From sequence record LC473039.1: a stretch of DNA of 64,000 nucleotides; one strand, written 5' to 3'. Under the pieces are notes generated by a model that saw only the letters and a program-made list of their open reading frames with translations, did no database searches and was not told the origin of the DNA. A program made the translations under genes and the position numbers. Source of the DNA: Escherichia phage L27. Positions 32,128 to 45,301 of the stretch are shown here, piece by piece. Position 1 is the stretch's first letter; each line of letters opens with the position of its first letter.

Positions 32128-40122
<7,995 letters not shown>

Positions 40123-40124
40123 TA

Positions 40125-41312
40125 ATGGCGGTAGGTGAAATTCAAATTAGTGCCTTGCCTCAAGCAGCCTTACCAATTGACCTTAGTGATATCTTCCATC
40201 TTAAGCAGGGTATTGAGGATAAGAGATGTACTCTTGAGCAATTACTTGCTCCACACTCAAGCCTAAGAAATAACCCTCATGGTGTTACTAAAACACAAAT
40301 TGGTTTAGATAACGTCATCAATGCTCTTCAGTTAGTTGCTGCAAATAACTTATCAGACGTTACTAATGTAGCTCAGGCAAGAGCAAATCTACAGATTATG
40401 TCTTCAGAAGAGGTTAATAATCTTGTTCAACAGCATATTCAGGACAAGAGCAACCCACACAATACAACTAAGGCACAGGTAGGGTTGAGCAATGTCCAGA
40501 ACTGGACAACATCGAACCTTTATAACGAAGATGCAGACAAGTACGCTACAGCAAGAGCAGTAAATAACTTGTACAAGGCTGTTCAGGCTTCCTATCCAGT
40601 AGGTACTATCCATCTTTCCATGAACTCTGCAAACCCTTCTACGTATTTAATTTGTGGAGGAACTTGGGAGTTAGTTTCAAAAGGTAGGGCATTGGTTGGT
40701 TATGACTCTGACACAAGACCAGCAGGCTCTGTATTTGGTGCTTCAACTGTCACTTTGTCAGTTAATAACATGCCACAACACTCACACTCTGTGTCTCTTA
40801 GTGGTGGTGGTCATGCTCATAATGCAACTGTGTCAATTTCAGCTTTTGACTATGGAACTAAGACTACCAACTCTTTTGACTATGGAACTAAGACCACTAA
40901 CACAACTGGTAACCATAACCATGTTGGTAGTGGGTCAACAAGTTCTGCTGGTGCTCATAACCACAGATTGACCTATGAATCAGGTGGTGGTTTATCGGAA
41001 AGACCTGCAATGGTTTGGTCTTCAAGGAATGACCAATCATGGTACTCAGCAGATGCTGTCTGTGAAGTAGCTGGTGCACACACTCACTCTTTCAGTGTTA
41101 CCACTAACACAACTGGTAACCACAACCATACGGTTGGTATTGGTGCTCACAGCCACACAGTTGGTATTGGTTCACATACACACAATGGTACTGTAACAGT
41201 TTCTTCTTCTGAGCATACGCATAGCGGGAACACTAATAGTGTTGGTGGTGGACAAGCTTTCAACATTGAGCAGCCATCCTTTGTACTGTATGTATGGCAG
41301 AGAACAGCTTAA
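40125..41312 (+). CDS. tail fiber protein with His-x-His repeat tip
   Basis: tail-fiber repeats (NPHGVTKTQIGLDNV / NPHNTTKAQVGLSNV), Gly/Ser/Thr-rich HxH repeats, in-frame 27-bp tandem duplication (40846-40899). Confidence 0.75.
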   Translation: MAVGEIQISALPQAALPIDLSDIFHLKQGIEDKRCTLEQLLAPHSSLRNNPHGVTKTQIGLDNVINALQLVAANNLSDVTNVAQARANLQIMSSEEVNNLVQQHIQDKSNPHNTTKAQVGLSNVQNWTTSNLYNEDADKYATARAVNNLYKAVQASYPVGTIHLSMNSANPSTYLICGGTWELVSKGRALVGYDSDTRPAGSVFGASTVTLSVNNMPQHSHSVSLSGGGHAHNATVSISAFDYGTKTTNSFDYGTKTTNTTGNHNHVGSGSTSSAGAHNHRLTYESGGGLSERPAMVWSSRNDQSWYSADAVCEVAGAHTHSFSVTTNTTGNHNHTVGIGAHSHTVGIGSHTHNGTVTVSSSEHTHSGNTNSVGGGQAFNIEQPSFVLYVWQRTA

Positions 41313-41358
41313 TTTCTTTACAGGGGCTTTGTAGCCCCTTTTAAGAGGAAAATTTATA

Positions 41359-43719
41359 ATGGTAGATTACAAGTTGAGTGAATTAAACTCGATTGACACA
41401 ATTCGTTCAGATGACCTTCTCCATGTCAGAGTTAAAAAGAGACCTGAGATGTTGGGTGATGAAGACCGTCGAATGACCTATCAAGACTTCTTAGCATCTT
41501 TTAAACTTGAAAGATTTGTTCAGATTGCTGGTAGTACTATGACGGGTGACTTAGGGATTGTTAAGTTACTTTATGGTGGTAAGGCAGTCTTTGACCCAAC
41601 AGGCTCTTCTGAGATTACTGTTGGGGATGTTTTAAAGACTTTTAAAATTAACGCAAATGGCCTTAAACTAACTATTGCAGATGCTTCAAGGTCGGCAACT
41701 GTTTATCATACTCTGAATAAGCCAAGCCCTAATGAACTTGGGATGAGAACTAATGAAGAGAATGATGCAAGATACGCAAGGCTTGCTGTTACAAATAACT
41801 TCAGCCTTAGGCAAGCAATTGTAACTGATGGTGAGCAGTTAACCCTTAAGAAAACAACCAATGCAGGTGCTTCATATATTCAAGGTAGGGATGCTAATAA
41901 CCAGCAAACTTGGTATGTTGGACAAGGAAATGCAAGCAATACTAATGTTTATTTGTACAATCATGCTACTGGCTCAATGTTGACACTTGATGCAACAGCG
42001 TCATTTAACAAGACACTAAGAATTATGGGTCAAGTTCAACCATCTGACTTCTCTAACTTAGATGCTAGGTACTTCACCCAGACAGTAGCTAACCAGAGAT
42101 TTGCACAGTTAGCTGCTAATAACACTTTTAGTGGTGCAAACACATTCACTAATTCCGTCAGTGTGAACTCTGATGCTGCTGCTATCATTCTCAAAAATAA
42201 AACTGTTAATGATAATTTGTTCATCCTAGCAAGAGACAGTGAAAACAATAATTTGTGGTATATTGGTAAAGGTGATACAAACTCTAATGTCACATTATAT
42301 GATTATAAGGGTGGTACTGCTATTAAATTAGACTCATCTGGTGTAACATTCAATAAGGTTGTAAAAATCATTGGTCAAGTTCAACCTTCTGATTGGGCTA
42401 ACATTGACTCTAGATACATTCCAGCAGCTACTTTGAATAATCTTGCTAAACTTAATGTGGCAAACACTTTCGTGAATGTGCAGACTATCGTATCAAATAA
42501 CGAAGGTTTAGTATTAAGAAACTTGACACAGGGGCAACCACTATATATCCGTGGTGTGGATACCGCGAACGTATCGAGGTGGTGGTTAGGTGTAGGTGGT
42601 GCAAACTCTAATGTGGTAACCTTAAACAATAGTTACTCTGGTACTCAAATTGCCCTTGAACCATCAGTAATTGTTGCGAATAAGAATTTAGCCATTACTG
42701 GCCAAGTTCAACCATCTGATTGGTCTAACTTAGATGCCAGATATTACACGCAATCTACCGCAAACTCTAGGTATATGCTCGCTAATTCCTCTGGAGGTGG
42801 TACAGAGGTGGGTGATGGTGATGGTATTGCTTGGAATGCTAAAACTGGTCTGTATAATGTATATACTAAATCTGGTGGTTCAACACAACTAGTTTATCAG
42901 ATGTTTGTTGGTGGTGGCTCAACACCAACTGCACAGTTGAAGTTTAGCTACAGGAATGGTGGTTTTTGGTATAGGTCAGCAAGAGATGGGTATGGATTTG
43001 AGAAGGCTTGGGCTAAAATCTATACAGACCAAGATAAACCAACCCCTTCAGAGATTGGTGCATACACTAAAGCAGAAACTGACCAGAAAATTGCAACAGC
43101 AATTAGTGACTCCACAGACCTTAATAAAATCTATCCAGTAGGTATTGTAACGTGGTTTAACAGTAATGTTAACCCTAATACAGCACTTCCTGGGTTAACT
43201 TGGACGTACCTGAACAATGGTGTCGGTAGGACTATCAGAATCGCAGCAGCAAACGGTTCAGATGTTGCTACAACTGGTGGTTCAGATTCTGTGACGTTAG
43301 CTGTTGGTAACTTACCATCACACACTCATAGTTTCTCTGCTACCACTTCATCTTTTGATTATGGTACGAAGGGCACTAATAGTACTGGTGGTCACACACA
43401 CTCTGGTAGTGGTTCTACCAGCACAAATGGTGAGCACAGCCACTACATCGAGGCATGGAATGGTACTGGTGCAGGTGGTAATAGGACATCATCATATGCC
43501 GTAGCATATAGGGTGGGTGGGAGTAACACTAATGCGGCAGGGAACCACAGTCATACTTTCTCTTTTGGGACTAGCGGTGCTGGTGACCATTCCCACTCTG
43601 TAGGCATTGGTGCTCACAGCCACACAGTTAGTGGTAACACTGGTGGTACAGGTTCTGGTTCAGCATTTAGTGTTACTAACCAGTTCTACAAGTTAATGGC
43701 TTGGGTGAGAACTGCTTAA
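41359..43719 (+). CDS. long tail fiber protein with three internal repeats and His-x-His repeat tip
   Basis: three copies of '(I/T)GQVQPSD(F/W)(S/A)N(L/I)D(A/S)RY'; C-terminal HxH repeats and C-terminal motif shared with 40125-41312. Confidence 0.75.
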
Positions 43720-43798
43720 TCCCTTGTTGACTGATTGTTAAGATGGTGTTAATATTCTTTATGGGTATTCTCACCATCTTGGCTGATGAGGTGATTAA

Positions 43799-43996
43799 AT
43801 GCCTACAATCCTAGCAATTCTTATAAAAAATCTAGGTAGCTTCTTCTGGAAACTCATTTTATCCCTTCTAAGTGAATACATGATTGAGAAAGTGTTCTTT
43901 AGGCTTGCAAGATACCTTGCGAGTAAAACAGACACACCTATTGATGATGAGTTCGTAGATAACTTAGAAAAAGCTTTTAAGGGGGAGAATAAATGA
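43799..43996 (+). CDS. hypothetical small membrane protein (65 aa)
   Basis: hydrophobic N-terminus; ORF after fiber. Confidence 0.45.
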   Translation: MPTILAILIKNLGSFFWKLILSLLSEYMIEKVFFRLARYLASKTDTPIDDEFVDNLEKAFKGENK

Positions 43997-44364
43997 AGTG
44001 GCTAGAGGAAGCTTTTAAAAATAATATTGGTGCAATTGTAGTTGGTATTTTTAGTGTTATTGGGATGTATACCACTATGCAAGTTTCAAGTGGTAAGCAA
44101 GAAGTGTCTATCACAACAAAGCTACAGCAGTTAGATAATTATTCCAAAAGTAATTATTCAGCTATTCGTGATTTACAGTCTGATATGAGGCTACTTCAGT
44201 TAGGGATGGAGAACCAGAAAGTCCAGTTAGAGAATGTTAAGGGTGAGAACGCAAAACTTACTAAGACCCTTGATAAATTCTCTGATAGCGTGAACAATCT
44301 GGCTCAATCAGTATCAGCCCTCCAAGCTATTACTGAGAAGAACACAAAGAATACTGAAAAGTAA
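43993..44364 (+). CDS. hypothetical membrane/coiled-coil protein (123 aa)
   Basis: N-terminal TM-like segment then heptad-like region. Confidence 0.45.
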   Translation: MKWLEEAFKNNIGAIVVGIFSVIGMYTTMQVSSGKQEVSITTKLQQLDNYSKSNYSAIRDLQSDMRLLQLGMENQKVQLENVKGENAKLTKTLDKFSDSVNNLAQSVSALQAITEKNTKNTEK

Positions 44365-44371
44365 AGTTTAA

Positions 44372-44398
44372 GGCTCCCGTAAAAAAGGAGCCTTTTTT
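44372..44398. terminator. bidirectional rho-independent terminator between convergent blocks
   Basis: perfect hairpin ggctcc...ggagcc flanked by A-run and T-run. Confidence 0.8.
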
Positions 44399-44401
44399 GT
44401 T

Positions 44402-45301
44402 TTATTTACCTACTGACAAAGGTGCTTCAATCTTTCCTGCATGTTGGTAATTGTTAATACCACCAATAAAGTCACTTGCAGTGAGATGTTTTAAGTCACT
44501 TAAAGTGTTAAGTGGTACACCAATCTCAAAAGTAGGTGCATGGAACTCTTCATTGTTCATCAGTTCATAAACCTGCTTCATGTGGTTCTGATAAATCTGA
44601 GTATCTCCAAAGACACCTATCAAGTATCGTGGAGTATATCCAGTCATCTTACAAAGAACTTCCAGAATAAAACCATAAGATGCAATGTTAAACGGAAGCC
44701 CTAAAAAGGTGTCTACAGAACGCTGATACCATTGTAAGTCAACTTCACCCTCGTTAGTGATATAAATCTGAAACAGAACATGACAAGGTGCTAAAGCCAT
44801 TGAGTTTGCTGCAATATCTGCTGCATTCCAAGCATTAACAAGCATGTAACGGTCTGTGATATCACCTTTCATCTTCGTTACTAAGGTCTCTAACTGGTCT
44901 ACAACACAACCATTATGACCCTCAAAGTTTCTCCACTGAACCCCGTAGATTCTCCCACCTGCATCTTCTAACCAGTCTTGTTCAGAAGAATAATTAGAAC
45001 TCAACCAGCGTTTAAAATCATCTGACCAGATAGTCCAGCGTTCCCCATCATTTTCACCCCAAGTTCGATAACGAAGTTCACCAAGTTTATTCTCACCATT
45101 CAGGAACCATAAAGCTTCCCCAATAACTTGCCGTGTAAACACCTGTTTAGATGTTAAGAGTGGGAAACCAGTACGCATATCAAAACGAAACTGAGGTGGA
45201 GCAAATGCAGAGATAACATCTCCAGTTCGTGTAGTACGCAGTTCACCAACGGATAAAACATGGTTCAGGATATTTTTGTAACTCAAATCAGCTTGTGACA
45301 T
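44402..45301 (-). CDS. thyA: thymidylate synthase
   Basis: active-site motif 'LAPCHVLFQ' and 'DRYMLVNAWN' ThyA signature. Confidence 0.9.
   Translation of the reverse strand: MSQADLSYKNILNHVLSVGELRTTRTGDVISAFAPPQFRFDMRTGFPLLTSKQVFTRQVIGEALWFLNGENKLGELRYRTWGENDGERWTIWSDDFKRWLSSNYSSEQDWLEDAGGRIYGVQWRNFEGHNGCVVDQLETLVTKMKGDITDRYMLVNAWNAADIAANSMALAPCHVLFQIYITNEGEVDLQWYQRSVDTFLGLPFNIASYGFILEVLCKMTGYTPRYLIGVFGDTQIYQNHMKQVYELMNNEEFHAPTFEIGVPLNTLSDLKHLTASDFIGGINNYQHAGKIEAPLSVGK

Follow-up and report, generated by a model that had tools for sequence, protein, structure and literature searches.

The tip of the T4 long tail fiber, formed by gp37 (PDB 2XGF; Bartual et al. 2010, as referenced in PMC12609058 and PMC6957217), serves here as the reference for two adjacent tail fiber genes found at 40125-43719 in a 64,000-nucleotide (nt) stretch of Escherichia phage L27 (LC473039.1); this whole stretch is referred to as the window. 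T4 gp37 carries seven HxH motifs (two histidines separated by any one residue), which bind seven Fe ions along a needle (PMC6957217). The same study divides this part of gp37 into a collar (811-881 and 1010-1026, collar D10), a stem (882-931 and 960-1009) and a tip (932-959). Folding of gp37 requires the chaperones gp38 and gp57A (PMC6957217, PMC3157838).

Closer relatives of the window have also been described. Bas63 (JohannRWettstein) belongs to the same genus and has the same gene order and domain plan. A cryo-electron microscopy study of this phage from 2025 names its gp23-gp27 as wedge 2, wedge 1, long tail fiber (LTF) platform, short tail fiber (STF) and LTF, and describes in both fibers a gp37-like tip with di-histidine repeats, that is, a collar, an HxH needle, a head and a chain that doubles back (PMC12609058). 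Homology of gp74 and gp75 of vB_EcoM_VpaE1 to the T4 gp37 adhesin was reported in 2015, given as an overall 54% identity over gp75 amino acids (aa) 584-780 (PMC4690856), and the paper on Sf14, from a sister genus, mentions a gp37-like distal tip. Thus, for the genus (Bas63, VpaE1) and the sister genus (Sf14), earlier papers already cover the architecture, the HxH metal sites of both fibers and of the spike, and the resemblance to T4 gp37, and the cassette boundaries and the paired-unit rule reported here are modest refinements.

With a high degree of confidence, we read the two window genes as the STF and LTF of a Felix O1-like phage, each ending in a T4 gp37-type metal-binding needle tip, and a tandem repeat within the STF as old and fixed, with no fresh slippage.

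Two fibers with T4 gp37-type tips

By its sequence, the window is part of a Felixounavirus genome (Felix O1-like myophages of E. coli and Salmonella). By megablast, 255 phage records match 40125-43719, almost all of them Felixounaviruses of Escherichia or Salmonella, and the annotation beneath the match reads "tail fiber protein (x2)". Two adjacent + strand open reading frames (ORFs) of 395 aa and 786 aa lie exactly where a sequence-only reading of the window had placed its two fibers. The first product is 99.7% aa identical to the annotated tail fiber of phage KhF3 and is assigned to PHROG 2097 "tail fiber" (E 7e-137), and the first 720 nt of its gene are 87% identical to Bas63, 96% to VpaE1 and 94% to CRP22. 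ORF order and lengths match Bas63 gp23-gp27 and VpaE1 ORF071 to 075: wedge 2, wedge 1, LTF platform, STF, LTF and two small ORFs, followed on the opposite strand by thymidylate synthase and dihydrofolate reductase. Given the roles assigned in Bas63, this matching gene order identifies the first fiber as the STF and the second as the LTF. The two fibers and their predicted C-terminal parts are as follows (AF2, AlphaFold 2).

40125..41312, + strand: short tail fiber (STF), 395 aa; ORF, synteny with Bas63, orthologue of Bas63 gp26 and VpaE1 gp74
40560..40778, + strand: STF collar, N-terminal part (aa 146-218); Gp10_C, matches to 2FKK, 5HX2 and 2XGF; the needle is inserted in this domain
40779..40964, + strand: STF ascending needle strand (aa 219-280); HxH positions, 2XGF alignment, strand of the AF2 monomer (model residues 83-135)
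40965..41078, + strand: STF head, predicted receptor-binding (aa 281-318); hypervariable, corresponds to T4 tip 932-959, low-confidence AF2 loop
41079..41222, + strand: STF descending needle strand (aa 319-366); HxH at 319, 333, 342, 351 and 364, 2XGF alignment, AF2
41223..41309, + strand: STF collar, C-terminal return (aa 367-395), including SFVLYVWQRTA; alignment with the T4 gp37 C-terminal strand (NIAFNYIVRLA) and with the LTF
41359..43719, + strand: long tail fiber (LTF), 786 aa; ORF, PHROG 4277 over its full length, synteny, orthologue of Bas63 gp27 and VpaE1 gp75
43123..43320, + strand: LTF collar, N-terminal part (about aa 589-654); sub-cut-off Gp10_C, STF collar alignment, Felixounavirus backbone at the nt level
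43444..43545, + strand: LTF head, T4-like (aa 696-729); T4 receptor residues conserved
43630..43716, + strand: LTF collar, C-terminal return (aa 758-786), including the 12-residue string at aa 775; nt identity of 97-100% to Bas63 and no nt-level relationship to T4, alignment

In phmmer searches against the PDB, STF aa 146-367 matches residues 18-228 of 2XGF (E 8.5e-27), and the LTF matches the same structure (E 1.2e-51). The two C-terminal modules are also homologous to each other, with 38% identity over 195 aa (E 1e-26). Pfam Gp10_C (PF21939), the collar fold common to T4 gp10, gp11, gp12 and gp37, is found in STF aa 154-261 (E 1.1e-18, 68.9 bits; curated cut-off 27) and, slightly below the 27-bit cut-off, in LTF aa 589-718 (E 1.3e-05, 26.5 bits); the STF collar also matches the T4 gp10 structures 2FKK and 5HX2. 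Phage_fiber (PF03335), which represents the GxHxH repeat, matches LTF aa 688-701 with 33.9 bits (cut-off 20) and is absent among the STF Pfam matches at E <= 0.01. The C-terminal 29 aa of the window fibers align with the gp37 C-terminus, with the endings VWQRTA (STF), AWVRTA (LTF) and YIVRLA (T4). In an AF2 monomer model, STF aa 140-395 form a long hairpin of two strands, and the loop at the head (STF aa 283-312) is modelled with low confidence.

On the gp37 model, the collar domain would be interrupted by a long insertion, in which the chain runs out along the fiber axis as the ascending strand, forms a small receptor-contacting head and returns as the descending strand, the last 20-30 residues rejoining the collar. 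In the trimer, six strands (ascending and descending from each of three chains) would build the needle. Because the chain doubles back, the C-terminal motif shared by both fibers would lie in the collar at the needle base, not at the tip, and together with the shared Gly/Ser/Thr/His-rich sequence it would thus be scaffold (collar and needle).

The HxH motifs are concentrated in these modules far beyond chance, with nine in the STF (1.4 expected) and six in the LTF (0.26 expected); none of 20,000 residue shuffles reached the observed number in either fiber. All 18 His of STF aa 210-395 and all 12 His of LTF aa 646-786 lie within HxH motifs. Those of the STF begin at 219, 230, 264 and 278 in the ascending strand and at the five descending positions listed above, so that the split between ascending and descending strands is 4 + 5 in the STF, compared with 3 + 3 in the LTF and 3 + 4 in T4 gp37. 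Each of the seven T4 gp37 motifs has one aligned counterpart among the nine of the STF, and the remaining two STF motifs (219 and 364) make up an additional collar-proximal pair. Several HxH columns do not vary, or are at least 90% conserved, over 53 homologues, with a conserved Gly before each. The sequence-only reading had pointed to HxH-rich C-termini in both fibers, and every peptide it quoted is present: GNHNH at aa 262 and 331, GAHSHTVGIGSHTH at aa 340 and SFVLYVWQRTA at aa 385 of the STF, and a 14-residue string at aa 742 and a 12-residue string at aa 775 of the LTF.

Its suggestion that these motifs are of the metal-coordinating kind and lie on a trimer axis is borne out as far as the homology to 2XGF and the published account of the Bas63 STF and LTF (PMC12609058) reach; our counts on the Bas63 fiber sequences agree with that paper's description. 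At each HxH level of the trimer, three chains would together supply six His to hold a single metal ion on the three-fold axis (Fe in T4), which predicts nine metal sites in the STF and six in the LTF, versus seven in T4. Metal occupancy in the window fibers is thereby expected by analogy. Alternatively, the HxH motifs could be structural relics, or their function could lie elsewhere, for instance in sensing pH or in scavenging metal at the surface, with no axial metal; consistent with this, a Foldseek search with the monomer model failed to retrieve the gp37 tip. However, the confinement of every His of both modules to HxH, the near-invariant columns with their preceding Gly, and the approximately 92% identity of part of the LTF to the crystallised iron-binding segment make this alternative extremely improbable.

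The window fibers share with the T4 gp37 tip the collar with inserted needle and head, the GxHxH motifs along the axis, the DxGTK units, the 9-residue GxHxHTV units and the C-terminal strand that runs back to the collar. We note four differences. First, the window fibers are single short proteins placed directly on a Mu-like baseplate, whereas T4 gp37 is the distal part of a four-protein jointed fiber. Second, the HxH count differs (STF 9, LTF 6, T4 gp37 7). Third, the LTF is without one DxGTK unit and one HxHTV unit that are present in T4 gp37. Fourth, the collars are only remotely similar to that of T4 (about 40% nt identity). Differences are also seen within the genus: the Bas63 STF has three FDYGTK-type units and seven HxH motifs, its distal needle and head differ from those of the window STF, and the Bas63 LTF, unlike the window LTF, has a head that is not T4-like. 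VpaE1 has an LTF tip cassette of the window type (93% nt identity over the last 420 nt), in which the head residues differ from the window LTF at several positions, and an STF with a different head (390 aa vs. 395 aa).

FDYGTK units, their age and their partners

The tandem repeat in the STF had been described, from the sequence alone, as an exact 27-bp duplication (40846-40872 and 40873-40899). This description does not hold, as TRF reports a period of 30 with 2.0 copies and 93% matches at 40843-40901. In frame, FDYGTKTTN is encoded at 40845-40871, followed by a Ser codon (40872-40874) and a second FDYGTKTTN (40875-40901); the two 27-mers carry two synonymous differences, and the 30-nt units are identical at 26 of 30 positions. 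The inventory of repeats was also incomplete, since a second array and a dispersed repeat in the same gene had been overlooked.

40845..40904, + strand: two tandem 30-nt units, FDYGTKTTNS and FDYGTKTTNT (aa 241-260); TRF, positional conservation, aligns with a 19-residue stretch of T4 gp37
41114-41184, + strand: second tandem array, period 27 nt (GxHxHTVGI units), in the descending strand; TRF rows 41114-41171 and 41133-41184
40893..40922, + strand: dispersed 30-nt direct repeat, copy 1 (TTNTTGNHNH), in the ascending strand; repeat family D4, 29/30 nt
41100..41129, + strand: dispersed 30-nt direct repeat, copy 2 (TTNTTGNHNH), in the descending strand; repeat family D4, 29/30 nt

Among STF homologues ranging in identity from 99% to about 56%, Salmonella Felixounaviruses and Mooglevirus Sf13 included, nearly all have their FDYGTK units at aa 241-250 and 251-260, and the aligned position of T4 gp37 holds a degenerate pair of the DxGTK motif (DLGTKTTSS and a 10-residue partner). 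All 13 STF clusters at >=93% identity have a length of 395 aa. Two units are carried by all 41 listed members of four close clusters; the 38 full-length proteins among them are 395 or 390 aa long, and no length difference of one 10-aa unit occurs among these 38. The same position in distant homologues, the T4 pair and the constant copy number together indicate that the duplication is old and fixed.

The sequence-only reading had instead proposed a replication-slippage site that would change fiber length, i.e., a recent duplication at a polymorphic, contingency-like site. The two units do encode identical 9-aa peptides and are more alike in the window STF (26/30 nt) than in most relatives (16-24/30); across eight genomes, including Mooglevirus Sf13, the unit-to-unit identity ranges from 16/30 (Bas63) to 27/30 (CRP22). 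Copy number also varies from one to four among distant family members, with one FDYGTK unit in the LTF, two in the window STF and T4, and three or four in some other STFs. However, each window unit is nearest to its positional orthologue (30/30 and 26/30 vs. REP8), and the units are nearer to the orthologous REP8 and CRP22 units (26-30/30) than a fresh duplication would require. Seven of nine codons are identical between the FDYGTKTTN copies, compared with 4.2 expected from codon bias (P ~0.06), a difference that is not significant. A recent duplication at the DNA level was rejected on this ground and because both units have orthologues. In addition, the unit count covaries with the array on the returning strand, so that one slippage event by itself would shift the strands out of register with each other. 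With the positional conservation and the two units in every listed close relative, these results leave a recent, length-changing slippage duplication with almost no probability. The close likeness of the two copies in the window clade possibly reflects a short conversion tract.

The covariation between the strands was followed over 110 homologues. In 89 of the 110, a protein has as many DxGTK-type units as HxH pairs with a spacing of exactly 9 aa, and in 108 the two counts differ by at most one (Spearman 0.87); most of the exceptions are degenerate units that escape the pattern. The classes of units and 9-spaced HxH pairs comprise 0/0 (various homologues), 1/1 (window, Bas63 and VpaE1 LTFs), 2/2 (window STF and T4 gp37), 3/3 (Bas63 STF) and 4/4 (other STF homologues). 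In two STF homologues of one lineage, P0049 and P0052, the units occur once per strand, ascending and descending, each facing 9-spaced HxH motifs, so that layer units with and without His seem able to change places between the strands. We infer that FDYGTKxTxx forms a His-free 10-residue needle layer, which would lie alongside the 9-residue GxHxHTVGI layers of the opposite needle strand. Needle length would then change solely when units of the 30-nt array and of the 27-nt array are gained or lost in pairs.

Heads, the T4-like cassette and predicted receptors

The head is the variable part of the STF: among 48 STF homologues, its mean identity to the window STF is 34%, compared with 72-88% for the other segments. 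The heads of the STF and LTF align over 34 residues, of which only 5 are identical. Judged from these alignments, the two fibers share a scaffold and not a receptor-binding surface, and since specificity lies in the head and the heads differ, they probably bind different receptors.

These results bear on the earlier proposal of a shared or exchanged receptor-binding tip, in which the STF and LTF would recently have swapped tips by intragenomic gene conversion and would recognise the same receptor. Both fibers do have the collar-needle plan and the C-terminal motif in common, and a 24-nt exact match exists between STF 41139-41162 and LTF 43606-43629 (ATTGGTGCTCACAGCCACACAGTT, encoding IGAHSHTV), the LTF copy lying at the 3' edge of a T4-like cassette. 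However, what is common is only the collar and needle, at 38% aa identity; the LTF distal needle and head are approximately 91% nt identical to T4, not to the STF; and the orthologous STF/LTF pairs of Bas63 and VpaE1 diverge equally. An STF-LTF tip exchange was rejected on the unrelated heads, and we consider it highly unlikely. The sequence-only reading was right that the two fibers have related C-terminal modules with a common C-terminal motif, whereas the motif belongs to the collar, and the recent exchange that is visible is between the LTF and T4, not between the STF and LTF.

43336..43629, + strand: T4 gene 37-like cassette, distal needle and head (LTF aa 660-757 = T4 gp37 aa 896-992); megablast, breakpoint profiles, 2XGF E 1.2e-51
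43354..43383, + strand: single LTF FDYGTK-type unit (10 residues), at the cassette 5' junction; repeat family D6, alignment, high identity to both Bas63 and T4

The cassette is about 92% aa identical to T4 and 90.8% nt identical over 284 nt (megablast), and codon-wise nt identity to T4 is 0.84-0.98 inside the cassette, compared with 0.31-0.53 in both flanks. A three-way profile shows Felixounavirus backbone to approximately 43355, T4- or VpaE1-like sequence from approximately 43340 to 43625, and backbone again from approximately 43610. The backbone stretches of the LTF are 80-100% identical to Bas63, whereas across 43443-43580 this identity is merely 0.13-0.67. Coverage of at least 80% of the last 420 nt is limited to 18 phage records (VpaE1, AYO145A, REP8 to REP12 and others), and most Felixounaviruses match only the final 120-140 nt of the LTF. 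The sequence profiles thus indicate a fairly recent exchange with a T4-type gene 37 that involved the distal needle and head of the LTF. Eight aa differ from T4, six of them in the 28-aa tip subdomain (6/28 vs. 2/69, Fisher P 0.007).

The zones in which the profiles overlap are the FDYGTK unit and the GIGAHSHTV unit. GxHxH "His boxes" at such junctions are reportedly described in the T-even adhesin papers of Tetart and colleagues. For T-even adhesins, recombination at conserved motifs has been put forward as a mechanism (Tetart et al. 1996, 1998, in the summary of PMC3157838), and the position of the cassette junctions at conserved motifs fits it; the 1996 title, as cited in PMC3157838, speaks of small gp37 domain duplications that expand the T4 host range. 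Unlike T-even adhesin exchanges, the exchange of the LTF cassette crosses families, from Straboviridae to Ounavirinae.

In the STF, the distal needle and head lie between the two copies of the dispersed 30-nt repeat. The repeat is confined to the lineage of the window and CRP22, with 27-29 of 30 positions identical, compared with 14-19 of 30 in five other genomes. Nine of its ten codons are identical between copies against 4.5 expected (P ~0.004), and this excess over the codon-bias expectation suggests that conversion took place recently within the gene or that a cassette came in with its ends already repeated. A metagenome contig, L009 (ena:ERZ27253092:k141_386089, 1211-2191; MEGAHIT k141), 98% nt identical to the window, encodes an STF of 326 aa. 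It carries a clean in-frame deletion of 207 nt (69 aa), exactly between the 30-nt repeats and corresponding to window positions 40923-41129, so that the head and distal needle are gone. This is the only length variant found among the close relatives examined, and it could be a defective genome or an assembly artefact.

Taken jointly, these features suggest a reading that we offer tentatively and regard as somewhat less probable than its opposite. The needle would be assembled from matched modules, 30-nt FDYGTK and 27-nt GxHxHTVGI, gained or lost together and giving six, seven or nine metal sites. The conserved units and the lineage-specific direct repeats that bracket the head would provide DNA junctions for head swaps between phage families (T4-like to Felix O1-like), occasionally deleting the head, as in the 207-nt variant. 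A corollary is that a T4-type head cassette would fold without a recognisable gp38.

The LTF head keeps the T4 receptor residues I933, N937, G938, G940, G942, G943, S947, Y949 and Y953. Among them, I933, N937, G938, G940, G942, G943, S947 and Y949 make up the patch shared by lipopolysaccharide (LPS) and OmpC together with the LPS patch, both of which are fully conserved (roles after PMC6957217). The LTF head thus retains the residues implicated in T4 in binding the terminal glucose of the LPS core. The hosts of VpaE1 are confined to B-type E. coli strains whose LPS core is truncated (PMC4690856). With the conserved LPS-patch residues, this host range of a phage with the same cassette type makes a T4/VpaE1-like LPS core a likely receptor for the window LTF.

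Upstream of its collar, the LTF contains further domains. At approximately 41800-42790 there are three repeats of about 110 aa (Pfam gp37_trimer, three matches), with DNA repeats at 42007, 42352 and 42679, and this region is weakly similar to the T7 gp17 fiber (4A0T, E 6e-4). The adjoining feature is the following.

42790..43116, + strand: LTF internal Mu S-like domain, aa 478-586; Pfam gp37_C (PF12604, E 1.4e-22), homology to the C-terminal region of Mu tail fiber protein S (PDB 8JU3, E 4e-22)

A second, lateral binding module may thus be present in the LTF.

For receptor-binding-protein engineering and host-range prediction, these comparisons locate the determinant of specificity in the head, which lies midway through the HxH region, and not at the C-terminus. 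They also give nucleotide-level limits for a naturally exchanged T4-type head cassette (43336-43629), suggest as a design rule that ascending and descending needle units be added or removed in pairs, and predict a T4/VpaE1-like LPS-core receptor for the long fiber of this phage.

Several points weigh against the interpretation given here. The AF2 monomer of the STF is only moderately confident (pLDDT 71), and its Foldseek search against the PDB, which missed 2XGF, returned no match with E <= 0.001. The axial placement of the His and the metal occupancy rest on homology. A T4 gp38 homologue was not found within the 64 kb of the approximately 87-kb genome (tblastn best E 0.23); with no recognisable gp38 in the stretch, tip folding may differ from that in T4. 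Two of the three T4 OmpC-patch residues are changed in the LTF (K945R and I951V), and the LTF receptor is assigned by analogy. The pairing correlation is suggestive, the sequences being phylogenetically related and 21 of 110 failing the strict regex count.

Neighbouring genes

Around the fiber genes, the window contains the following features.

36449..37072, + strand: central spike (puncture apparatus), with HxH at aa 188-190 (37010-37018); 99% identical to PDB 9NDY chain G (Bas63)
37491-38960: wedge 2, 489 aa; synteny with Bas63
38963-39820: wedge 1, 285 aa; synteny with Bas63
39820..40122, + strand: LTF-platform protein, 100 aa; length and position as bas63_0025 (Bas63 gp25), PHROG 4141, role according to PMC12609058
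43799-43996: small ORF, 65 aa, PHROG 402; directly 3' of the LTF
43993-44364: small ORF, 123 aa, PHROG 4038, weak DivIC-like coiled coil; 3' of the LTF

A scan of 39700-44450 for promoters and terminators gave counts not above those in shuffles. The two small conserved ORFs 3' of the LTF fall in PHROGs without an assigned function; they occupy the place of gp38 in T4 and are dissimilar to gp38. A His cluster had been noted in the spike as well from the sequence alone. The HxH is indeed present, and H188/H190 of the Bas63 spike has been read as an iron site (PMC12609058), whereas the cluster amounts to a single HxH (H188-T-H190) with one further His after it.

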